Shown here piece after piece: positions 6,784-31,140 of a stretch of DNA of 48,334 nt. Location: positions 1 through 48,334 of the forward strand of contig QZJL01000029.1 in NCBI GenBank assembly GCA_003599745.1, written 5' to 3'. How positions within the stretch are numbered: the stretch's first letter is position 1; every line of letters begins with the position of its first letter. The translations under genes and the position numbers were made by a program. The notes below the pieces were generated by a model. That model did not search any database, had not been told where the DNA came from, and was given only the letters and a program-made list of their open reading frames with translations. This DNA is from Dehalococcoidia bacterium. GTDB taxonomy: Bacteria > Chloroflexota > Dehalococcoidia > Dehalococcoidales > SURF-40.

Positions 6784-6948
6784 ATGGCGCAGGAGAATAA
6801 ACGCCGGGGCGGGGCAGGCAGTGCGCTGGCTGGTACCATCTGGTTCATCGGCTTCCTTTTCACCATCGGCTTTGCCAAACTGGTGTGGTGGCAAATCCTG
6901 TTCGGCATCGTCATCTGGCCGTATTACCTGGGAGTGGCGCTCAGGTAA
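6784..6948 (+). CDS. Small membrane protein, 54 aa (below the ORF-track cutoff)
   Basis: AAGGAGG SD lies 6 nt before the ATG. Translation MAQENKRRGGAGSALAGTIWFIGFLFTIGFAKLVWWQILFGIVIWPYYLGVALR has two hydrophobic helices. G/C-biased third codon positions. Confidence 0.45.
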   Translation: MAQENKRRGGAGSALAGTIWFIGFLFTIGFAKLVWWQILFGIVIWPYYLGVALR

Positions 6949-7031
6949 GATTCCTTTACTATCAGCCTCGCAACCTTTATAATAGCCGTATCCAAGAGGA
7001 CTATTTGTCCTGAAACCGGAGACACCCAATC

Positions 7032-8519
7032 ATGACCAAGCAGACCAGCCTTGAAGCCATCACCGAAGAAAGGTTGCAGAAGCTAGAGCGCCTGCGCCAG
7101 CAGGGGTTTAACCCTTATCCCAACCGCTACCGCCGCAGCCATACCGCCAGCGAAGCCGTCGCTCTCCTGGGAACGCAGGAAGCGGCGGGCACCGAGGAAA
7201 GGGGCGAGGTCAGCGTGGCGGGGCGGGTCACCGCGCGGCGGGACATGGGCAAGATCAGCTTCATTGACTTGCGCGACGGCTCGGGGAAAATCCAGTTGCT
7301 ATGCAGTAATGCCCTCGGCGAAGAAGCCCGCCGGGTGCTCAAGGAAATTGACATCGGCGACATCATCGGCGCCAGCGGCAAGGTTTTTCGCACCCGCACC
7401 AAGGAGCCGACCATCGAGACGACCGACATCGTAATGCTCGCCAAGTCGCTCCGGCCGCTGCCGGAAAAATGGCACGGCCTGGCCGACGTTGACAAGCGGC
7501 ACCGCCAGCGCTACCTCGACCTCATCGCCAACCCCGGTGTGAAGGAGATTTTCGAGACCCGCAGCCGCGTCATCGCCAAAGTACGGCAGTTTATGAACCG
7601 GCGGGGGTTTATCGAGGTAGAAACGCCGGTGCTGCAGCCGGAGGCGGGTGGCGCGCTGGCAAGGCCCTTCGTCACCCACCATAACGCCCTCGACCAGGAT
7701 TTCTACCTGCGCATCGCCCTGGAACTTCACTTGAAGCGCCTTATCGTGGGCGGGCTGGAGCGGGTATATGAGATAGGGCGCATCTTCCGTAACGAGGGCC
7801 TTTCCCATAAACACAACCCGGAGTTCACCATGCTGGAATGCTACCAGGCCTACGCCGATTACCGGGACGTGATGAAGCTGGTCGAGAGTATGGTAGCAGG
7901 CGTCTGCCGCAAGACGCGGGGCAGCCTGACCGCCCAGTTCGTGGGGCATGAAATAAACTTCAAGCCACCCTGGAAGCGCCTCGACCTGCGGGAAGCGGTT
8001 AAAAGTTTCAGCGGCATTGACTACGCCGAATGTCCCGACGCCGCTTCGCTGGGCAATGCGATGGTAAAAATCGGAATGACGGTTGACCCGAACAAAGACC
8101 GGGGGCGGCTGATTGACGAGCTTATCTCGACCTACGTCGAACCGAATTTAGTCCAGCCCACCTTCCTGGTGGACTACCCGCGCGATATGTCGCCGCTGGC
8201 AAAAAACCGCCCCGACAACGACCGGGTAGTGGAGCGGTTCGAGGCTTTCGCCGGCGGGATGGAGATTGCCAACGCCTTCACCGAGCTTAACGACCCCGGT
8301 GAGCAGCGACGGCGTTTTAGGGAGCAGGTTGCAGGAAGGTCGGCGCACACCGAAGGCGAAGAATGGACGATTGACGAGGACTACTTGGAAGCGCTGGAAT
8401 ACGGTATGCCGCCCACCGGCGGCCTGGGGGTGGGCATTGACCGGCTGGTGATGCTGGTTACCGGCCAGGAGTCCATCCGCGAGGTGATTTTGTTCCCCCA
8501 GTTAAGGGACAAGCCATAA
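7032..8519 (+). CDS. lysS: Lysine--tRNA ligase (class II)
   Basis: OB-fold N-domain, class II motifs FRNEG and GMPPTGGLGVGIDRLVML. 495 aa. Confidence 0.95.
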   Translation: MTKQTSLEAITEERLQKLERLRQQGFNPYPNRYRRSHTASEAVALLGTQEAAGTEERGEVSVAGRVTARRDMGKISFIDLRDGSGKIQLLCSNALGEEARRVLKEIDIGDIIGASGKVFRTRTKEPTIETTDIVMLAKSLRPLPEKWHGLADVDKRHRQRYLDLIANPGVKEIFETRSRVIAKVRQFMNRRGFIEVETPVLQPEAGGALARPFVTHHNALDQDFYLRIALELHLKRLIVGGLERVYEIGRIFRNEGLSHKHNPEFTMLECYQAYADYRDVMKLVESMVAGVCRKTRGSLTAQFVGHEINFKPPWKRLDLREAVKSFSGIDYAECPDAASLGNAMVKIGMTVDPNKDRGRLIDELISTYVEPNLVQPTFLVDYPRDMSPLAKNRPDNDRVVERFEAFAGGMEIANAFTELNDPGEQRRRFREQVAGRSAHTEGEEWTIDEDYLEALEYGMPPTGGLGVGIDRLVMLVTGQESIREVILFPQLRDKP

Positions 8520-8546
8520 AAACACGCCGCTCGCAAGGAGAAGCCG

Positions 8547-9791
8547 ATGCTCGACCTTAAATATATCAGGGAAAACCCCGAAGCCATCCGCAAGGCGCTT
8601 GCCAGCCGCAAGGACACCGGCCCCCTTGACGACATCATCCGGCTCGACGGTGAACGGCGCGAGAAACTGGCCGAGCTTGACGAGTTGCGTCACGCCCGTA
8701 AGGAAGCCTCGAAAGTCCGGCAAGAGTCCGGGGAAGGCCGAGCGCTCCGGGAGAAGATTAAGACGCTCGAAGAAACGGCGAAAAACCTCGACGAGCAGGT
8801 GGGGGCGCTCCTGCTGCACATGCCCAACATCCCGCAGCCCTCGGTGCCGGTGGGCGCCGGTGAGGAAGACAATGTTATTGTGCGCGCCTGGGGCGAGCCG
8901 AAACAATACCCCTTCACCCTTCTCCCCCACTGGCAGCTCGGCGATAAACTGGACATCATTGACTTCGAGCGCGGCGTCAAAATCTCCGGCACCCGGTTTT
9001 ACGTCCTCAAAGGCCAGGGAGCGAAGCTTCAGCGTGCTCTCATCAACTTTATGCTCGACCTGCATACGAGCGAGCACGGCTATCGCGAGATCTACCCGCC
9101 GTTCATGGTGAAAAGGGAATGCCTGGTCGGCTCGGGCAACCTGCCCAAGTTCTCCGACAACCTCTACCGCGACGCCATTGACGATTTCTGGTTCGTGCCC
9201 ACCGCCGAGGTGCCGCTCACCAACCTGCACCGCGACGAAATCATCCCGCCGGGCGCACTACCCATTAACTACGTGGCCTACACCGCCTGCTTCCGGCGTG
9301 AGAAGATGTCGGCAGGCAAAGATACGAGGGGCATCAAGCGCGGCCACCAGTTCGACAAGGTGGAGATGTACAAGTTCACCGAGCCGGAAAGATCGAACGA
9401 AGAGCTGGAAAAGATGGTCGCCAACGCCGAAGACGTCTGCCAGAAGCTGGGCCTCGCCTACCGCGTCATCGCTCTCTGCACTGCCGACCTGGGCTTTGCC
9501 TCCACCAAGTCGTATGATATTAACGTCTGGGCGGCAGGTTCGGGCGAGTGGCTCGAAGTAAGCTCCTGCTCCAACTGCGGCGACTTCCAGGCGCGCCGCG
9601 CCAACGTCCGCTACCGCCCCAGCCCTGAAGAAAGGCCTCGCTACGTGCACACCCTCAACGGCTCGGGGCTGGCCCTCCCCCGCATCCTGATTGCGGTGCT
9701 AGAAAACTACCAGCAGGCCGACGGCTCAATCGCCGTTCCCGAGGCGCTGCAGCCGTTTATGGGGACAAAAGTCATAAAGCAGCAGGCGTAA
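8547..9791 (+). CDS. serS: Serine--tRNA ligase
   Basis: MLDLKYIRENPE coiled-coil arm, TAEVPL, CFRRE, LNGSGLALPRILIAVLENYQ. Confidence 0.95.
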   Translation: MLDLKYIRENPEAIRKALASRKDTGPLDDIIRLDGERREKLAELDELRHARKEASKVRQESGEGRALREKIKTLEETAKNLDEQVGALLLHMPNIPQPSVPVGAGEEDNVIVRAWGEPKQYPFTLLPHWQLGDKLDIIDFERGVKISGTRFYVLKGQGAKLQRALINFMLDLHTSEHGYREIYPPFMVKRECLVGSGNLPKFSDNLYRDAIDDFWFVPTAEVPLTNLHRDEIIPPGALPINYVAYTACFRREKMSAGKDTRGIKRGHQFDKVEMYKFTEPERSNEELEKMVANAEDVCQKLGLAYRVIALCTADLGFASTKSYDINVWAAGSGEWLEVSSCSNCGDFQARRANVRYRPSPEERPRYVHTLNGSGLALPRILIAVLENYQQADGSIAVPEALQPFMGTKVIKQQA

Positions 9792-23709: not shown

Positions 23710-23886
23710 CCGCCCACAGTGTAATCTTTCTTGACAGCCGGGCCCCACATCTGATTGGAATCTTCGCCAAATGGATATTGACTTTTATGAGACATTAATA
23801 TACTATTCTGGACAACAATATAATTTATGAGAATCGTCGAGTCACAGTTTTCTGACATCGATGGGGACTATCGTGAGGTATCAGGG

Positions 23887-24432
23887 ATGGCATTAATGAC
23901 AGTTCAGGAGGTCGCTGATTATCTTCGGGTCACAACGAAGACGGTATACAGACTGCTTGAGAAAGATAGCATACCGGCGACAAAGGTAGGCCGTCAATGG
24001 AGATTTGACGAGTCCTCAATTGATGTCTGGCTGCGTCAGCAGCCGGCAGAAAAAAAAGTAGCGAATATCCTTGTCATAGACGATGACCAGATGATTTGCC
24101 TGCTTTTCAAAGACGCTCTTGAGGCATTGGGGCACGCTGTAACCACCGTTGAAAACCCTTTAAAAGGATTGGACCTGGTGAAAAACGGAGATTATGACCT
24201 AGTATTTCTTGATTTGAAAATGCCGGGAATGGATGGTGCTGAGCTTTTAGCACAAATCAGGATAGCCAAACCCAAGCTCCCGGTAACTGTGATTACCGGT
24301 TACCCGGAAAGCGAACTTATGATGCGTGCTCTGGTACATGGCCCGCTAGGCGTGATGAGCAAGCCTTTTCGGGTATCGGATGTCCTGATCGCTGTTAATA
24401 ACTACCTCAGATTCGGCACAACGACCAAATAA
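23887..24432 (+). CDS. Response regulator with reversed architecture: N-terminal excisionase/MerR-type HTH and C-terminal receiver domain
   Basis: HTH: MTVQEVADYLRVTTKTVYRLLEKDSIPATKVGRQWRF. REC: ILVIDDD, LVFLDLKMPGMDG, VITGY, SKPF. The ORF is open from ATG 23827; ATG 23887 has a GAGG SD and matches the usual HTH N-terminus. Confidence 0.8.
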   Translation: MALMTVQEVADYLRVTTKTVYRLLEKDSIPATKVGRQWRFDESSIDVWLRQQPAEKKVANILVIDDDQMICLLFKDALEALGHAVTTVENPLKGLDLVKNGDYDLVFLDLKMPGMDGAELLAQIRIAKPKLPVTVITGYPESELMMRALVHGPLGVMSKPFRVSDVLIAVNNYLRFGTTTK

Positions 24433-24437
24433 TATTT

Positions 24438-24457
24438 AAGGAGGGATTATGCGCTGA
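24438..24457 (+). promoter_or_regulatory. Strong SD followed by a two-codon mini-ORF (ATG CGC TGA) upstream of the precursor-peptide gene
   Basis: AAGGAGGG (24438-24445), 3-nt spacer, then ATG-CGC-TGA (24449-24457). Confidence 0.35.
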
Positions 24458-24522
24458 ACATCTTCGCCCATTGAACCATGTCTTCATATTACTGCAAACG
24501 AAATTTCGAAAGGAGTCATCAA

Positions 24523-24753
24523 ATGAGGTCTCAGGCATTACAAAGTCTGGTCAAAAAAATCTTCGGCGACGAAAAGACGAGGCTCGAATTCGAGTCAAAC
24601 CCGGAAGGCGTTCTATCCCAGTTCGATCTATCGAAACAAGAGAAAAAAGCGGTGATGAACACCTATTCTAAACTGGGGTTGGTGAGCGGTAACTCTCAGC
24701 AGATGGAGGCAACGCTTAAAGCCACTATCGATTGGAGTGCCCCCGAGCCGTGA
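24523..24753 (+). CDS. 76-aa candidate RiPP/pheromone precursor peptide (NHLP/Nif11-like leader, Trp-containing C-terminal core)
   Basis: AAAGGAG SD lies 7 nt before ATG 24523 (listed ORF starts at 24478). Leader: LVKKIFGDEKTRLEFESNPEGVLSQFDLSKQEKKAV. C-terminus: ...GNSQQMEATLKATIDWSAPEP, containing the only Trp. Its stop overlaps a GTG of the next gene (GTGA). Confidence 0.6.
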   Translation: MRSQALQSLVKKIFGDEKTRLEFESNPEGVLSQFDLSKQEKKAVMNTYSKLGLVSGNSQQMEATLKATIDWSAPEP

Positions 24754-25715
24754 CGCCACTGCCGTGGCAAGAAAAACAGACTCAGGTTCTCAGAAGTGAG
24801 ATAGATTTAGTTCTGGCGCCTTTGACTAACATTGCTAGTTTATGCGATTTGGTTAAAGAATCTCTTACACAGGAGAGAAGGGCATTTGCCACCGAACACG
24901 AGAATAGCCGGCCGTGGCCTCTATTACCTTTGATAATATGTGAGGCGATCTCAGGCCAATATGAAGTAGCAATCCCTGTGGCAGCCGCTCGCCAATTTAT
25001 GGTAGCTGCTGCTGACATCTTTGATGACATAGAGGACGAAGATTCTCCGAGGTCGTTACCTGCCAAATATGGGGTTGCAGCGGCGACAAATGTGGCGACA
25101 ACTCTTCTAATTCTGGCAGAAAGAGCTGTTACGCGACTTAAAGATAAAGGCGTCTCAAATGAGAATGTAGTCCGAGTCATGGACTCTTTCAATTCGTTCT
25201 ATGCCACTGCATGTGTTGGGCAACACTTAGACCTCTCTTTAACTCCAGAAACAGCGGCCTCGGAGGAAATCTATCTCAGAATCATAGAATTGAAGTCAGC
25301 GTCTCAGGTAAAGTGTGCCTGCAATATAGGAGCGTTGCTAGCAGGAGCTGACCGGCAATTGATCGCCAAGTTCTCAGATTTTGGTTATAACCTTGGAATG
25401 GCTTCACAAATCACAAATGACATTCAGGGGATTACTGATGGAAAGGACATTTTTAATAGAAAAATAACTCTGCCTGTAATATACGCACTAAATCAAACGG
25501 AGGGGGACATTCGGCTAGAGCTAGAGACCGTATTCTGCAAAAGGTCCAAGCATGAACCTGCTACATCATTAATACAGGATTTGTTGTTTCGTACCGGTGG
25601 CATTCACTACGCTGTGGTAAAGATGGAACTATATAGACAGAAAGCTATGGATATCCTATCAGATATTACAAAGTTAGGAATTGTTGTAGAAAGGCTAAAA
25701 CTGTTCCTAGAATGA
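24750..25715 (+). CDS. Polyprenyl-synthetase-family protein with degenerate catalytic motifs; ComQ-like peptide prenyltransferase candidate
   Basis: First acidic motif retained (IFDDIEDED). The second DDxxD is replaced by NDIQG (GMASQITNDIQG). GGKRxRP and RRG signatures are absent. GQHLDL and KITLPVIYAL match the family fold. The ORF is open from TTG 24732; GTG 24750 gives GTGA coupling to the peptide gene. Confidence 0.75.
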   Translation: MTPLPWQEKQTQVLRSEIDLVLAPLTNIASLCDLVKESLTQERRAFATEHENSRPWPLLPLIICEAISGQYEVAIPVAAARQFMVAAADIFDDIEDEDSPRSLPAKYGVAAATNVATTLLILAERAVTRLKDKGVSNENVVRVMDSFNSFYATACVGQHLDLSLTPETAASEEIYLRIIELKSASQVKCACNIGALLAGADRQLIAKFSDFGYNLGMASQITNDIQGITDGKDIFNRKITLPVIYALNQTEGDIRLELETVFCKRSKHEPATSLIQDLLFRTGGIHYAVVKMELYRQKAMDILSDITKLGIVVERLKLFLE

Positions 25716-25731
25716 AACAAACGGAGTTCCC

Positions 25732-28155
25732 TTGAGTTCTTCAGATAATAGATTAAACCGGCTGCTAACTGGGAAAGAAGGACTGAAGCCAACGCTGCTT
25801 TTATTCTTTGCCTTCTGCATTGTAGCTATTTCCCTAATTTTCTTCATCTCAAGTATCGGCAAGCCGTCTATCGGAGTAAGTCTCACTCGTGATTCTCAAG
25901 GTTGGCTAGTCAGCATCACGGATGCAAACGGCTTAGCAAATGAGACTGGTATTAAAGCCGGTGACAGGCCAATAGAAATCAATGGTCAGCCAGCCCAAGT
26001 GTTCTTAGAAAAATACGAAGAGGTCGGTTTGGTTCTTGGAAGACTAATCCAGAAACTCACTGTAGTCGACAATGTTGGACAGACCAAGACGGTAGTTCTT
26101 GAAGGTACTTCACCTTCATGGGAATCGATCATTAGCCGGATCTCGAGGTTTGCAGTCTCCTTCATATTTTGGATAACCGCATTCTTCGTGTTCTTTAAAA
26201 AACCGAAAAGCATTTTATCTCTACTGCTAATATTAATGGGGCTTTCATTCGGTCTTGTCCTTAGTGGGAACATGGCATCTGAGGTTGCAATTGCCACAGC
26301 GGTCTGGTTTGAGGTTACTGCGACAGCTATCGCGCCTTGGCTGCTCCTCCATTTTTTCCTTGCGCTACCCCAGGAGCGAGTTTGGGCTCGGGGAAACAAC
26401 CTCGTATATCTTATCTATCTTTTACCGCTAATTGCTGCGGTTTTATTCCCTATTGTTGGTTATGCTAATGGGCAACCTGTGCCGGGATTTCGATCCTTCA
26501 GGTACGCCTTGTATGCATCGGGATTTATAGCAGTAATTTGTGTGGCAGTCGTCAACTACTTCCGTACTGATTTGACCAGAACAAGGCAGCAAATGAAGAT
26601 AGTGTTATTCGGCTGTCTTGCTGCCCTAATTCCTCCCCTAGCTCTCTATATTATCCCGTCAGCGATATGGGGACGGGCCATTCTTCCCGGAGAAATAAAT
26701 ATTTTGTTTGTTGCGTTCATACCCCTGGCTATGGGTTACGCAGTCGTCACAAAACAGCTGATGGACATAGACGTTATTATGAGGCGGAGTTTGATTTATG
26801 GCCTGGTCACCATAGTGATGGCAGCAATTCTATCGGCCGGTATTTTTATTGCATTTGCTTTCCGTCGCACTATGGGGGTTCCCGAAGAAATACTGATTGC
26901 TCTGATTCTGGGAGGGATTGCCACCGCGTTATTCGGGCCAACCAAGAAGGGCGTTGAAAACCTCATTGACAGGCTTTTCTACAAAGACAGGTACGACTAC
27001 AAGCAAATAATCCAGAGCCTGGGTATCTCTTTGAACTCCGCTATTGGTTTAACCGCAGTTTCACGCCTCGTCGTCGGCACTGTGGTTAACACGTTGAATC
27101 TGGCTGGGGGATGTTTGTTTGTCAGGACACAATCCGGTTCTTTCGAGGTTGGAGCGGCACAGGGCTCGTATATTGACCCGGCCCAACAAAGACAGCTGCT
27201 GGAGCTGATTCCGAAGAGAAGCCGCCTGGTGGAGTTTCCAAATAATGCGCCATCAGAAAGTCCTGACGCAGCCTTCCTGGTGCCGCTCGTAGTAGGTGAG
27301 AAAGAGGTGGGTGTTCTTTGTCTGTCGCGTAAGAAAACCAGACAAGATTTTTCGCCGGACGACCTGTACCTAATCCAGGGGATTGCTTCAGCAGCTTCAA
27401 TGGCGTTGCACAGCGTTATGCTTAAACGTGACGTCAGTATCCGGGCTACTTTTGTCTCGGTCGCCTCCCACGAACTTCGCACCCCGTTGACTTCAATCGT
27501 AGGTTATGCCGACTTACTGCTGCAGCGCGACCCCCCGGCTGCCACCAGGAAACAGTGGCTCAAAAACATTCTTGATAACAGCCAGAGGGTCAGCGATATG
27601 GTGGACGACCTCTTGAATGTCAGCCGAATTCAGTCCGGCAAAACCAGTATCAAGCTTGAAAGAGTGAGCTTACCCGGTCCTCTTGAGGAGACTCTCTCCC
27701 TAAGCCGCGAAACTACCAACAAACATGAATTTGTTGTTGACATAGAACCCGGCCTTCCCTATTTATCGGTTGACCGGAACAAGTTCGGTGAGATTATTGG
27801 TAACCTTCTAAGCAACGCCATTAAATATAGCCCGAATGGTGGACTCATTACCCTTTCCGCTCGCTCTGAACCAGCAGAACACCGCGTAATTGTGAGCGTA
27901 TCTGATGAGGGTATTGGGATAGCTCCCGAAGATAGAGCCTCGCTGTTTACATCTTTTCACCGGATTCAGAGACCCGAGACCAAGGGAATCAGGGGAAGTG
28001 GCCTGGGTCTCTACATAGCCAAAGAGTGGACGGAGGCGATGGGGGGAAATATCTGGGTGGAGAGCGAATTGAACAAAGGCTCAACTTTCTTTGTGGCGGT
28101 TCCGGCTAAGGCTTCAAGTAAGGTGGGACAAGAATCAAGATTACCTGCCGAATAG
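25732..28155 (+). CDS. Polytopic membrane sensor histidine kinase (TM, PDZ-like segment, about 9 further TM helices, GAF-like, HisKA, HATPase)
   Basis: GIKAGDRPIEINGQP (PDZ-like), multiple hydrophobic helices, H-box VASHELRTPL, N box LLSNAIKYSPNGG, G boxes DEGIGI and GSGLGLYIAKEW. TTG start preceded by ACGGAG. Confidence 0.9.
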   Translation: MSSSDNRLNRLLTGKEGLKPTLLLFFAFCIVAISLIFFISSIGKPSIGVSLTRDSQGWLVSITDANGLANETGIKAGDRPIEINGQPAQVFLEKYEEVGLVLGRLIQKLTVVDNVGQTKTVVLEGTSPSWESIISRISRFAVSFIFWITAFFVFFKKPKSILSLLLILMGLSFGLVLSGNMASEVAIATAVWFEVTATAIAPWLLLHFFLALPQERVWARGNNLVYLIYLLPLIAAVLFPIVGYANGQPVPGFRSFRYALYASGFIAVICVAVVNYFRTDLTRTRQQMKIVLFGCLAALIPPLALYIIPSAIWGRAILPGEINILFVAFIPLAMGYAVVTKQLMDIDVIMRRSLIYGLVTIVMAAILSAGIFIAFAFRRTMGVPEEILIALILGGIATALFGPTKKGVENLIDRLFYKDRYDYKQIIQSLGISLNSAIGLTAVSRLVVGTVVNTLNLAGGCLFVRTQSGSFEVGAAQGSYIDPAQQRQLLELIPKRSRLVEFPNNAPSESPDAAFLVPLVVGEKEVGVLCLSRKKTRQDFSPDDLYLIQGIASAASMALHSVMLKRDVSIRATFVSVASHELRTPLTSIVGYADLLLQRDPPAATRKQWLKNILDNSQRVSDMVDDLLNVSRIQSGKTSIKLERVSLPGPLEETLSLSRETTNKHEFVVDIEPGLPYLSVDRNKFGEIIGNLLSNAIKYSPNGGLITLSARSEPAEHRVIVSVSDEGIGIAPEDRASLFTSFHRIQRPETKGIRGSGLGLYIAKEWTEAMGGNIWVESELNKGSTFFVAVPAKASSKVGQESRLPAE

Positions 28156-28539
28156 GGGACGAGAATAAAAAAGATATTAATAGTTGAGGATGACGAGAGC
28201 GTCAGGGACCTGCTCTGTGCCATATTCAACACCTTTATGGGGCGTTACCATACCGTATGCGCCAAAGATGGTGAAGAGGCTCTCAGCATCGCGCGGATTG
28301 ATGTCCCGGATATTATTTTGCTGGATATCAATTTGCCTGGCTTGAACGGATACCAGGTTTGCAGGCTTGTTAAGGCAGACCCGGGGATGTCAGAAACCAA
28401 AGTCATAATGATAACCGGTATGGCGCAAAGCTACGACCAGTCAAAAGCCAGGGAAGCGGGCGCTGACGGTTATTTCACAAAGCCATTCAGTTCCGCCGCC
28501 CTGGCTAAAAAAGTGGGGACTCTTCTTGAGAGCAGATAA
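28156..28539 (+). CDS. Stand-alone receiver (REC) domain whose conserved N-terminus precedes the first canonical start codon; in frame with the kinase across one TAG
   Basis: The frame opens right after the kinase TAG: GTRIKKILIVEDDESVRDLLCAIFNTFMGRY... No ATG, GTG or TTG occurs in frame before ATG 28237. REC residues present: EDD, ILLDINLPGLNG, MITG, FTKPF. Confidence 0.75.
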   Translation, partial: GTRIKKILIVEDDESVRDLLCAIFNTFMGRYHTVCAKDGEEALSIARIDVPDIILLDINLPGLNGYQVCRLVKADPGMSETKVIMITGMAQSYDQSKAREAGADGYFTKPFSSAALAKKVGTLLESR

Positions 28540-28541
28540 AG

Positions 28542-29108
28542 ATGCAAGTGGCAGAGCGCGACGCAGTAGTGCTAGTTGACGAGCAGGGCCGTGACAAGTA
28601 TCAAGATGATGGCCGGCTATCCATCTCCGGGAAGATAGAGGCGCATCGCCGTGGTCAATTACATAGGGCGGTTTCTGTCTTCATCTTTAACGATGGGAAC
28701 GAAATTTTGCTGCAGAAGCGCGCTGATGGTAAGTATCATTCCCCGGGAAAGTGGACTAATACCTGTTGCACTCATCCTGTACCGGGTGAGAGTCCAGTTA
28801 AAGCTGCACGAAGCAGGCTCGTTGAGGAAATGGGAATTGTAACCCAGTTAACCGAGGCCTTTGCGTTTTTATATCGAGCCGATGTCGGAAATGGTCTAGT
28901 CGAAAATGAATTCGACCACGTATTCGTCGGGGTCTTTAATCAGAAACCAAACCCTGACCCGGATGAAGTGTCCGACTGGAAATGGACGCCTGCAAAAGAG
29001 TTAAGACAAGAATTGGATATTAATCCTGATGAGTATAGTCCCTGGCTTCGGCAATGCTTCAGCGAAGTGTTTGAATACAGGCTACGAGACGCGAGCGGTT
29101 GCATATGA
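28542..29108 (+). CDS. idi: Isopentenyl-diphosphate delta-isomerase, type 1 (Nudix fold)
   Basis: HRRGQLHRAVSVFIFN, LLQKRA..K, KWTNTCCTHP (catalytic Cys), VENEFDHVFVG (catalytic Glu). Confidence 0.88.
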   Translation: MQVAERDAVVLVDEQGRDKYQDDGRLSISGKIEAHRRGQLHRAVSVFIFNDGNEILLQKRADGKYHSPGKWTNTCCTHPVPGESPVKAARSRLVEEMGIVTQLTEAFAFLYRADVGNGLVENEFDHVFVGVFNQKPNPDPDEVSDWKWTPAKELRQELDINPDEYSPWLRQCFSEVFEYRLRDASGCI

Positions 29109-29881
29109 ACTACCTGACTCTATTTGTTTCATTGCGTTGCACACAGACGTGTGCTCATTGTCTGTACGGATGTTCTCCCGCTAAAGGAGAGCACATGTCC
29201 CGGGAAGTTTTCATAAGGTCAGTAGCCATTGCCAAAGAGAGTCGAATCACGACATTGAATTTCTTCGGTGGGGAACCATTGCTTAACCCGCATTTCTTTC
29301 CCATGCTGCAGACAGCGTTCGAAAATGGTTTTTCCGTAATGCTCGCAACAAATTGCCGTCCTCTTGCCCGAAAAGAGCTTTTCGCCAAATTTCTAAGCAT
29401 TACCAAAACCCACCAAGAGAAAATACATATTTTCACTGCCAGAGACAAGTTTCATCTGGAGCATTTCGACCCGTTTAATGTCATCGCCGCTTTGAGGAAA
29501 GAAAATTACGAAGTCTCCGTTAGTGATTATTCTAATGAGGCAATTCTATTGTCTGAATATAACTTTTACAATCAGAACCTGCGGGACCTGAACACGCTCT
29601 ATTCGTGTTGCGGGGGCCGGTGGACGGACTATCTCGGAGTCTTGCCAGATGGTGCGTGGACGATTTGCCCCCCGTCTCTGGAAGCATTCGGTAACATCTT
29701 TTCTAACAGCCTTGAAGAGATTGTGGAATTCAAACGTGGATTGCCGCTACGCTATGCCGAAGGGTGTACCGATTGTCTGACAGACTTCAAGATCTTCCGG
29801 AAAGAATTCGAGATGGGGAAAGCCTTTCAAGCCGCGGAAAAGTCAAAGACAGGCAGCACACCCAATCCTGACGCGGTGTAA
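29105..29881 (+). CDS. Radical SAM enzyme with a SPASM/twitch-like C-terminal Cys domain (RiPP-maturase-like)
   Basis: CxxxCxxC in SLRCTQTCAHCLY and FFGGEPLL. C-terminal CGGRWTDYLGVLPDGAWTIC fits CX13GX4C, followed by CTDC. ATG 29105 overlaps the idi stop (ATGA). Confidence 0.8.
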   Translation: MNYLTLFVSLRCTQTCAHCLYGCSPAKGEHMSREVFIRSVAIAKESRITTLNFFGGEPLLNPHFFPMLQTAFENGFSVMLATNCRPLARKELFAKFLSITKTHQEKIHIFTARDKFHLEHFDPFNVIAALRKENYEVSVSDYSNEAILLSEYNFYNQNLRDLNTLYSCCGGRWTDYLGVLPDGAWTICPPSLEAFGNIFSNSLEEIVEFKRGLPLRYAEGCTDCLTDFKIFRKEFEMGKAFQAAEKSKTGSTPNPDAV

Positions 29882-29915
29882 CCAGGAAGTTCAAACGCAT
29901 TTTAGGGGTAATATT

Positions 29916-31022
29916 ATGAATGTTGCCAAAATCCTCGTCGTGGATGATGAGGAAGCCGTGCGAGAAGTGATTCAGGCGATGCTTGAAACTAAAGGGTATG
30001 AAGTAGACGTCGCGGGGGACGCTGTGGAAGCATTAGCAGATGCCAAGCAAAAACAATACGATTTGCTCATCACGGACATCTGTATGCCCGAGATAGACGG
30101 TTTGGAGCTTAGCCGAAGGTTGCGGGAATCAAGCCCTGATATTGCTTCAATACTGGTTACCGGATACCCGACGGTTGACACGGCAATGGCAGGGGTCAAG
30201 ACAGGCGTCTATGACTATATAATCAAACCGGTAAGGAAGGATAAACTTTGTCATTCCGTAGCCAGTGTCATTAAAAGGCAACAGCACGTGCGTTTTCTGG
30301 AGAAAATGGCGCGCGATTCACAAAAAGAGGAAAACGACCGGGGGCAGTTCGTCAACGTCCTTGCCCACGAACTTTACACATCACTTACACCGATGCTCAC
30401 TGGCGCCGAACTAATGCTGGAAAGAGTCAAAGGTGAGCCGAACACTGTCGAGGACAGGTTGGCAAAGGTAATGTTCGGCAGCGCACAGATGATGCGCTAT
30501 CGCCTCGACAAATTGCTGCTGCTCGCCCGGCTTGAGGCAGGAGGCTTTGTCTTACATTTAACTCGGTTTGACGTTCTGACCATCATCAAGCAAGCAAAAG
30601 CAAGGTTTGACGTCGTAGCATCCGAGAAGGGTCAGCGCTTGGAATTGGATATACCGGATAGCCCACTTCCCATCAAAGCCGATCGCTCTTGTCTCGAGCA
30701 GGTTATAACAAACCTCTTGGAGAACGCGTTGAAATTTACACCCGAAGGCGGAAAAGTTCTATTAGAAGCGAAGATTGTCGAGGGTGAACTGTTGGTCAGT
30801 GTGCAAGACAGTGGGGCCACATTTACTGACGAAGAGCGTCAGCGTCTGATGCAACCATTTTGGAGGAGCGAGATAGACAGGCAAAGGATTCCCGGGGTTC
30901 GCCTAGGGTTAGCTCTGTGCCAGAAGTTAGTTGAAATTCAAGGTGGTACGATTTGGGTAGAGGGCGGCAAGGAAGGAGGAAACACTTTCGCTTTCGCTGT
31001 GCCGGTTTCAGCCACTGAGTAG
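29916..31022 (+). CDS. Soluble hybrid REC-HisKA-HATPase sensor kinase
   Basis: REC: ILVVDDEE, LLITDICMPEIDG, LVTGY, IKP. H-box LAHELYTSLTP, N box NLLENALKFTPEGG, G box GVRLGLALCQKLVE. No TM segment. Confidence 0.88.
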   Translation: MNVAKILVVDDEEAVREVIQAMLETKGYEVDVAGDAVEALADAKQKQYDLLITDICMPEIDGLELSRRLRESSPDIASILVTGYPTVDTAMAGVKTGVYDYIIKPVRKDKLCHSVASVIKRQQHVRFLEKMARDSQKEENDRGQFVNVLAHELYTSLTPMLTGAELMLERVKGEPNTVEDRLAKVMFGSAQMMRYRLDKLLLLARLEAGGFVLHLTRFDVLTIIKQAKARFDVVASEKGQRLELDIPDSPLPIKADRSCLEQVITNLLENALKFTPEGGKVLLEAKIVEGELLVSVQDSGATFTDEERQRLMQPFWRSEIDRQRIPGVRLGLALCQKLVEIQGGTIWVEGGKEGGNTFAFAVPVSATE

Positions 31023-31140
31023 TTCAACTTCCTGAATTGCCGTTGAGATTGCACATTTGTAAGTATCGGTATTAAAAATGGTGGTAGCCGAATTCGCCAC
31101 AATAAATAAGCCACACTAAAAATGTCGCTTCTTTAGTGCG

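Follow-up and report, generated by a model that had tools for sequence, protein, structure and literature searches.

A putative ComQ-type peptide tryptophan prenyltransferase in a ComQXPA-like cassette of Chloroflexota

What does a protein with the fold of a polyprenyl diphosphate synthase do when the part of its active site that binds isopentenyl diphosphate (IPP) is missing? The question is posed by a gene, here called Q, in a 48,334-nt stretch of DNA from a Dehalococcoidia bacterium (contig QZJL01000029.1 of assembly GCA_003599745.1; this whole stretch is referred to below as the window). An initial annotation, made from the letters alone, had proposed that Q encodes a transferase that binds only an allylic diphosphate and hands the prenyl group to an unrelated acceptor, the peptide encoded by a translationally coupled gene, here called X. 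Our analysis supports that proposal through the state of the Q active site, an invariant tryptophan in X and an adjacent ComP-like kinase, P: Q is probably a ComQ-type peptide tryptophan prenyltransferase that would act on Trp71 of X, within a sensing circuit resembling ComQXPA. The class we have in mind comprises the ComQ-family peptide tryptophan prenyltransferases, InterPro IPR033965 in the broad sense ('trans-IDS-like PTs', trans-isoprenyl-diphosphate-synthase-like prenyltransferases). ComX-type signalling, in which a pheromone is activated by tryptophan prenylation, has long been held to be a speciality of Bacillus and the Firmicutes; the Chloroflexota matter for the cycling of carbon and organohalides in the subsurface and are difficult to culture. 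The elements on which the argument turns are the following.

24523..24753, plus strand: X, precursor peptide of 76 amino acids (MRSQ...KATIDWSAPEP), with an ATG start and AAGGAG 7 nt upstream.
24750..25715, plus strand: Q, a protein with the trans-isoprenyl-diphosphate-synthase fold, read here as a putative ComQ-type peptide tryptophan prenyltransferase; 321 amino acids from a GTG start.
24903..24920, plus strand: NSRPWP at the position of the IPP-binding motif GGKRxRP, with K replaced by S and the second R by W (W56, nearly invariant).
25023..25043, plus strand: first aspartate-rich motif (FARM), DDIEDED (D92, D93, E95, D96, D98), invariant in the family.
25407..25430, plus strand: QITNDIQG, a second aspartate-rich motif (SARM) of the ComQ/StheQ 'pseudo-SARM' type, Q220-x-x-N223-D224-I-Q-G227, with the upstream Gln conserved.

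The open reading frame (ORF) first assigned to Q, 24732-25715 on the plus strand, has two candidate starts, TTG at 24732 and GTG at 24750. The latter shares bases with the stop codon of the small upstream ORF (GTGA), and a gene call in a public collection (P0001) is 321 amino acids long, the same length as the GTG product; homologues of Q start further in still, at MWQERQ. GTG 24750 is thus likely the real start and TTG 24732 the less likely one: the end of the originally annotated frame stands, its beginning probably does not, and residues of Q are numbered here from the GTG.

There is no doubt that Q has the all-alpha fold of trans-isoprenyl diphosphate synthases. It matches the Pfam family polyprenyl_synt (PF00348, E 3.5e-27), and each string cited in the initial annotation, fold landmarks and motifs alike, is present in the frame 24732-25715. 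An AlphaFold2 model built from a 101-sequence alignment reached a pLDDT (predicted local distance difference test) of 89.6 and a pTM (predicted template-modelling score) of 0.89; with 20 sequences in the alignment the pLDDT came to 64.5, and that poor model was set aside. Foldseek matched the model to a geranylgeranyl pyrophosphate (GGPP) synthase, 5jfq_B, with template-modelling scores of 0.82/0.86, and to the indole prenyltransferase Ord1 with scores of 0.76/0.80. With a PDB copy that held no ComQ-family structure, the fold search does not separate ComQ-like enzymes from canonical synthases.

The registers of the individual motifs were set by HMMER alignments to the solved synthases 3IPI, 3RMG and 5JFQ and by a MAFFT alignment with 132 representative relatives, canonical enzymes included. 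Both alignments place the motifs where the initial annotation had placed them, and its registers are thus correct. The FARM of Q conforms to DDxxD and was correctly described as intact. At the GGKRxRP position the direct translation reads NSRPWPLL (24903-24926), and immediately after the FARM, where canonical enzymes carry RRG (canonical RR(G/H)xP), there is a 4-residue deletion (DDIEDEDSPR----SLP on DDxxDxxxxRRxxxx), so that the reported absence of both elements holds. The only arginine nearby is R101 in DSPR; it falls on the first Arg of RRG and is not conserved, being Glu in most of the family. Further downstream, the lid loop before KITLP is 9 residues shorter than in canonical enzymes and lacks the 'TGK' lysine.

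The second motif needs more care. NDIQG aligns on the SARM pattern DDxx(D/G), with the second Asp alone retained and Asn at position 1; the initial annotation was right to call this degenerate as far as the Asp-to-Asn change is concerned. We considered G227 as a further part of the degeneration and rejected it, as the nearest canonical relatives likewise read DDxxG; for the same reason the diagnostic change in Q is best taken to be D to N at position 1. In ComQ, too, the second SARM Asp is the sole one retained, position 1 being Asn (or Gly), and mutating this Asn to Asp drastically lowers geranylation, the motif being termed a pseudo-SARM (PMC5331326).

Q lacks four separate IPP/diphosphate-binding elements, and so, without exception, does its family. 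Among 101 homologues with 56-63% identity to Q (mean column identity 74%), D92, D93, E95, D96, D98, K182, Q220, N223, D224 and G227 are invariant and W56 nearly so. Because these motif residues do not vary, we read the seemingly degenerate state of Q as a selected character of its family and not as decay. Taken together, the N-D pseudo-SARM, the intact FARM and the lack of both RRG and GGKRxRP make up the published signature of the ComQ family (PMC5331326; bioRxiv 10.64898/2026.08.29.745113).

Might Q still be a geranylgeranyl or polyprenyl diphosphate synthase that condenses IPP, its odd motifs being tolerated variants? Its homologues are named GGPP synthase at JGI, it falls within PF00348, its best structural matches are GGPP synthases and an IPP isomerase gene lies nearby. 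Yet none of the features that mark a canonical synthase (SARM DDxx(D/G), GGKRxRP, RRG and the lid Lys) is seen in Q, the four losses are family-wide, and both aspartate motifs are required for condensation (PMC5331326), as the initial annotation had stated. All NCBIfam synthase equivalogs score Q at less than a quarter of their cut-offs (IdsB, the best, 98.7 bits against 475; GGPP_syn 91.2 against 500; FPPsyn 49.6 against 275), and the Q gene is never found in an isoprenoid or carotenoid context, always in a peptide/kinase cassette. We regard IPP condensation by Q as barely credible, and the GGPP synthase label in databases is a systematic mis-annotation of the Q family. The argument from the aspartates runs in one direction only: PalQ of Paenibacillus alvei keeps two SARM aspartates (PMC10853753), so a lost SARM, typical as it is for the ComQ branch, is not required for peptide prenylation.

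A candidate acceptor is encoded directly upstream. X (MRSQALQSLVKKIFGDEKTRLEFESNPEGVLSQFDLSKQEKKAVMNTYSKLGLVSGNSQQMEATLKATIDWSAPEP) has a single Trp, Trp71 (codon 24733-24735), and consists of an NHLP/LigA-like helical leader (about residues 1-61) followed by a hypervariable C-terminal core. An X homologue precedes Q directly in 42 loci, giving 38 unique sequences, every one of which has Trp71 at a fixed distance from the leader. Around this fixed point the core is highly variable: mean identity among the 38 falls from 0.60 in the leader (residues 1-61) to 0.29 in residues 62-70, and position 72 is occupied by 13 different residues. The tail past the Trp reads x-A-P-x-P in 18 of the 38 and is a single residue in 16; in one sequence the Trp is terminal. 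X is thus a short precursor with a conserved Trp near its C-terminus, adjacent to Q and overlapping its start. Models of the NHLP clan match the 38 sequences (NF038399 in 27, TIGR04509 in 11, TIGR03793 in 5; best E 9e-8), all below their curated cut-offs, and a profile of the X family run against the PDB finds precursors of the SonA type/LigA domain (E 8.5e-4), which belong to the ribosomally synthesized peptides with post-translational modifications (RiPPs).

The coupling of the two genes also bears on the idea that Q is a small-molecule aromatic prenyltransferase resembling Ord1, acting on free tryptophan or indole, or some other non-peptide transferase to which the peptide is unrelated. Ord1 (PDB 9V4G-J) is indeed among the matches in sequence (E 4.9e-11) and in fold (with the scores given above) and also uses a FARM together with Gln/Asn near the SARM. 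Such an activity would leave unexplained why Q is tightly linked, often by overlap, to an invariant-Trp peptide gene in 42 loci, and the N-D enzymes StheQ and ComQ act on neighbouring peptides (PMC5331326). We consider it very improbable.

If Q modifies X, what would the product be for? The genes around the pair, all in the low-GC island described below, are these.

23827..24432, plus strand: response regulator with an N-terminal HTH_17 (excisionase/MerR-type) domain (PF12728, E 1.6e-17) and a C-terminal receiver (PF00072, E 6.1e-25).
25732..28155, plus strand: P, sensor histidine kinase of 807 amino acids; one transmembrane (TM) helix, a PDZ-like extracytoplasmic loop (about residues 50-136), about nine further TM helices, then GAF, HisKA and HATPase domains (Pfam).
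28156..28539, plus strand: stand-alone CheY-like receiver (PF00072, E 6e-20, the match beginning at profile position 24).
28542..29108, plus strand: type 1 isopentenyl-diphosphate isomerase (NF002995, 167.6 bits against a cut-off of 127; TIGR02150, 118.2 against 105.8; assigned at equivalog level).
29099..29881, plus strand: small radical-SAM/SPASM-like protein of 260 amino acids with CxxxCxxC (PF04055, 31.8 bits against 29.5; SPASM below cut-off).
29916..31022, plus strand: REC-HisKA-HATPase hybrid kinase (Pfam), at the end of the low-GC island.

The kinase P lies next to Q on the same strand, and a homologue follows Q in 37 of the 37 loci of the window's family in which the contig reaches past Q. 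Its hydropathy profile shows about ten TM helices with a loop of about 85 residues after the first; this loop has a weak Pfam PDZ match and aligns with Bacillus ComP at E 0.011. In BLASTP against ComP, P reaches E 7e-15 over its full length; its TM module by itself reaches E 6e-13, with IPLAMGYAVVTKQLMDID aligned to IPLALVYQFVVNKIYDID. The membrane sensor of P is homologous to that of Bacillus ComP. When 13 loci are compared, the sensor half diverges more (0.44-0.59) than does the catalytic half (0.71-0.74), a pattern qualitatively like the comQ-comX-comP(N) polymorphism of Bacillus (PMC4008528).

The HTH_17 and receiver protein is likely the output regulator, an analogue of ComA. Its gene stands directly 5' of the peptide gene in the loci L001-L005, and tblastn recovers it at 58-72% identity in most loci with sufficient contig. 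Since homologues run to 181-192 amino acids, its real start may be Met21 (23887). The stand-alone receiver gene follows the kinase in most loci. In the window its frame codes for a full receiver from about 28156 (TRIKKILIVEDDE...) but has no ATG, GTG or TTG where homologues (L001 and L003) start; translation from ATG 28237, the first canonical start, would leave out the region of the acidic phospho-acceptor pocket. Either a non-canonical start (ATA or ACG) is used, or the gene has been inactivated. In L001, L002 and L031 the IPP isomerase gene is found at the same place in the cassette. Behind it, the radical-SAM gene recurs only in L031 (10347-11054, 62% identity); its product might modify the peptide a second time, a thioether being excluded because neither the window peptide nor that of L031 contains Cys. 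A streptide-like Lys-Trp crosslink was set aside, the Lys before the Trp not being conserved in L031. The REC-HisKA-HATPase protein has no counterpart in the other cassettes examined. A promoter and terminator scan of the island gave no clear operon boundaries, terminators occurring at the level of shuffled sequence.

Several observations weigh against a ComQXPA-like circuit. Over its whole length Q is more similar to canonical synthases (about 130 bits to representatives with DD and RRG; E 1e-14 to a GGPP synthase in the PDB) than to ComQ (48.5 bits), and because of this, common ancestry of the N-D branch and ComQ rests on shared motifs and indels and not on a resolved tree. X is no member of the ComX family: the Pfam ComX model (PF05952) finds no match in it, whereas a Bacillus ComX taken as a control clears its cut-off of 25 bits with 42.1. 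Nor is the regulator like ComA, and in the kinase HisKA takes the place of the HisKA_3 found in ComP. With its receiver gene devoid of a canonical start codon, the cassette in the window may be partly decayed. The activity of the Q family is itself a prediction. Finally, the cassette encodes no protease or exporter; to our knowledge, Bacillus comQXPA likewise encodes neither.

An NHLP-like leader and an adjoining radical-SAM gene could also fit a different product. Q might prenylate Trp71 to make a lipidated RiPP natural product, antimicrobial or membrane-active, with the kinase and regulators controlling or sensing its production. NHLP-clan leaders are typical of RiPP natural products, the radical-SAM/SPASM gene is present in both the window and L031, the PalQ product is treated as a RiPP and a lipidation tool (PMC10853753, PMC13290415), and the biological role of the StheQ substrate StheX is stated as unknown. 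The conserved core, however, holds no transporter, protease or immunity gene; strict synteny extends only to a sensor homologous to ComP and to regulators; and a hypervariable core around a fixed Trp, together with a sensor half that evolves faster, resembles what is seen in ComX/ComP pherotypes (PMC4008528). We judge a natural product unlikely, though less so than the non-peptide activities considered above, and favour a ComQ-type enzyme serving a sensing circuit.

In such a circuit Q would be Mg2+-dependent, its intact FARM binding and ionising an allylic prenyl diphosphate (C5-C15), while the dismantled IPP site (Lys and Arg of GGKRxRP lost, RRG deleted, the first SARM Asp replaced by Asn, lid shortened) would accommodate the core of X instead. 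The NHLP-like leader of X would dock on Q, and the indole of Trp71 would attack the prenyl cation, probably at C3, with closure of a pyrroloindoline ring like that of ComX and PalX. Once freed of its leader and exported, the lipidated product could be sensed by the adjacent ComP-like kinase, which would signal to the HTH_17 response regulator encoded upstream of X. The stand-alone receiver may modulate signal flow, and the co-located IPP isomerase plausibly boosts the supply of dimethylallyl diphosphate or other allylic donor.

How far does the arrangement extend? The core order response regulator (RR)-X-Q-histidine kinase-receiver (REC) recurs in unrelated genomic neighbourhoods (L001-L005) and in essentially every metagenome locus that is long enough. 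An alignment-based scan yielded 54 loci; narrower pattern scans for the single protein gave only the Bacillus locus described below in genome contigs and none in metagenome contigs. An exhaustive HMMER search of 1.84 billion cluster representatives returned 8606 matches at E<=1e-3, of which 89 reached E<=1e-30. Of the best 150 representatives of clusters at 50% identity, 132 were full-length and were sorted by their motifs. In 99 of the 132 the second motif reads N-D and neither an RRG-like motif nor GGKRxRP is present; 16 have D-D with no RRG-like motif and no GGKRxRP in the alignment; and 13 are fully canonical, with GGKRxRP, RRG and the TGK loop. The group of 16 includes P0342, P0343, P0362, P0367, P0381 and P0384, and several of its members have the PalQ-like spacing QxxDDxxD; judged by their motifs, they may be PalQ-like peptide prenyltransferases.

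A second N-D family, of high GC content, came from soil metagenomes (L053, L056-L060), with the FARM DVFDDIADGE and the pseudo-SARM NDARD. In L053 (2219-5617) Q is followed by a 77-aa peptide ending in PVFWAA and then by a multi-TM kinase with a PDZ-like loop, an order (Q-X-P) like that of ComQ and StheQ.

The host belongs to the Chloroflexota and is Dehalococcoidia-like: the ATP synthase beta subunit (AtpD) of the window is 93-94% identical to proteins of metagenome-assembled genomes (MAGs) labelled Chloroflexota and Dehalococcoidales. The cassette sits in a low-GC island (23800-31100), inserted between rpsP/khpA and UDG/RNase J/FtsK; GC content is 47.7% in the cassette and 59.3% in the rest of the window. 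In other loci the cassette is close in GC content to its flanks, which span 39 to 52%, and this difference suggests that a higher-GC host acquired the cassette horizontally from a lower-GC relative. Neither an integrase nor a tRNA was seen at the island borders. Elsewhere, the cassette of L003 lies near a DNA methylase and a PLD-helicase, and that of L005 near BrxC/PglY-like and DUF4007 genes, neighbours of mobile or defence type, which fits a location in variable genomic regions. One homologue, P0083 (59% identity to Q), comes from a MAG labelled 'Candidatus Bathyarchaeia archaeon'; the rest of the family is found in bacterial contexts, and the archaeal label is probably a binning artefact. 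As a tentative generalisation, for which the case is still somewhat short of even, the cassette could represent widespread, horizontally mobile and pherotype-diversified quorum sensing by prenylated peptides in uncultured Dehalococcoidia-like Chloroflexota and neighbouring lineages.

Parts of this picture were known. Pseudo-SARM enzymes of the ComQ family have been described, among them one characterised example from the Chloroflexi, as have NHLP-type precursors with PalQ; and the loss of IPP-side motifs in peptide prenyltransferases is a published principle that the initial annotation rediscovered. What is new is an uncharacterised, mis-annotated Q subfamily and its breadth in metagenomes, the pairing of an active site of ComQ type with a PalX-like leader, and a complete candidate circuit outside the Firmicutes (regulator, precursor, prenyltransferase, ComP-like receptor, receiver and prenyl-donor supply), which recurs in dozens of contigs from sediment, peat and aquifer metagenomes and whose X core, in the manner of pherotypes, changes around a constant Trp. 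If the interpretation is right and extends to the N-D clade with its 99 of 132 representatives, Trp-prenylated peptide signalling would be common well beyond the Firmicutes, hidden under the name GGPP synthase. The loci offer sets of peptide, enzyme and receptor that can be synthesised to study cell-cell signalling in Chloroflexota, and candidate Trp-prenylating biocatalysts that may accept an internal Trp behind an NHLP-like leader.

Among characterised systems, canonical synthases (5JFQ, 3IPI, 6KD7) share with Q the all-alpha fold, the FARM, GQxxDL, K(S/T)A and the Gln before the SARM. Q departs from them in its first SARM residue (Asp to Asn), in lacking GGKRxRP, RRG and the lid Lys of TGK, in scoring far below the family cut-offs and in its genomic context, a signalling cassette. 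The known trans-IDS-like peptide prenyltransferases, as listed in a 2026 review, are ComQ, ChrPC-P and PalQ, and the conserved Gln three residues before the SARM has been implicated in Trp recognition (PMC13290415).

StheQ and the PalQ/PalX pair were compared with the window through published residue numbers and descriptions. StheQ, the subject of a 2026 preprint, comes from the cultured species Sphaerobacter thermophilus (Chloroflexi) and prenylates Trp68 of a neighbouring 69-aa peptide; it holds one Mg2+ at the FARM and none at its pseudo-SARM (N215, D216, D219), with K174 and Q212 holding the diphosphate (bioRxiv 10.64898/2026.08.29.745113). K182, Q220, N223 and D224 of Q lie at a constant offset of +8 from K174, Q212, N215 and D216 of StheQ, and the FARM at +7. 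The two enzymes come from the same phylum and share a FARM, an N-D pseudo-SARM and an equally spaced Lys and Gln; StheX, like X, is a neighbouring peptide of about 70 amino acids with a Trp close to its C-terminus, and its prenylation is experimental. Unlike X, stheX lies downstream of its enzyme gene, and the StheQ pseudo-SARM ends in Asp (NDxxD), as in L053 and L056-L060, where that of the window ends in Gly. The StheQ paper discusses no kinase or regulator and states the biological role to be unknown (bioRxiv 10.64898/2026.08.29.745113).

PalQ is a trans-IDS-like Trp prenyltransferase whose two SARM aspartates are D200 and D204; it requires a C-terminal Trp, and the PalX leader enhances modification (PMC10853753). 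As in the window, the enzyme is encoded directly after a precursor peptide (P-X-Q; PalX is of NHLP type), beside a histidine kinase, and has the conserved Gln three residues before the SARM. The equivalents of D200 and D204 in Q are N223 and G227, so that Q lacks the PalQ form of the motif. PalQ strictly needs a C-terminal Trp, whereas window X has five residues after it, with only the one homologue in 38 noted above ending in Trp; and the kinase is upstream in the PalQ system, downstream in the window.

A further comparison is with comQXPA of Bacillus, for which our pattern scan of genome contigs gave a single match, the degQ-comQXPA locus of Bacillus sp. ISL-51 (L006). Its ComX passes PF05952, and its ComQ matches only PF00348 and generic synthase models (Pfam, NCBIfam). 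The comP gene of this locus is split into two ORFs (6907-7422 and 7460-9211), possibly through a receptor-inactivating frameshift or stop, or possibly an assembly error. Censuses have found complete comQXPA loci in Firmicutes only (PMC4008528; PMC8895600), and Dogsa et al. 2014 take as criteria a ComX-family precursor (PF05952), a neighbouring multi-TM sensor kinase of ComP type on the same strand, as P is in the window, and a NarL/LuxR-type ComA downstream in the order Q-X-P-A. The window differs in its host, a member of the Chloroflexota; in the order RR-X-Q-P-REC, with X-Q-P in place of Q-X-P; and in its precursor, which at 76 amino acids has an NHLP-like leader, is outside the Pfam ComX family and carries its Trp 5 residues from the C-terminus (1 or 0 in other loci). 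It differs, too, in a kinase with GAF and HisKA where ComP has HisKA_3, in a regulator of HTH_17 and REC domains placed upstream where the NarL-type ComA of Bacillus is downstream, and in carrying a stand-alone receiver and an IPP isomerase in addition.

As to likenesses, Bacillus ComQ reads FDIFDDIEDED and IENDYYG, and BLASTP aligns Q with it at 29% identity over 247 aa (E 5e-11); the two have identical FDDIEDED and the same NDxxG, and both deletions of Q, behind the FARM and in the lid loop, recur in ComQ. In each cassette a short precursor is encoded next to the enzyme, its Trp lying close to the C-terminus within a hypervariable core. ComP has been modelled with ten TM helices and a PDZ fold in its first extracellular loop (PMC9620489), and P resembles it in having about ten TM helices and a first loop that is PDZ-like; the membrane modules of the two are homologous. 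In both Bacillus and the window, the genes run along one strand as overlapping or closely spaced ORFs.

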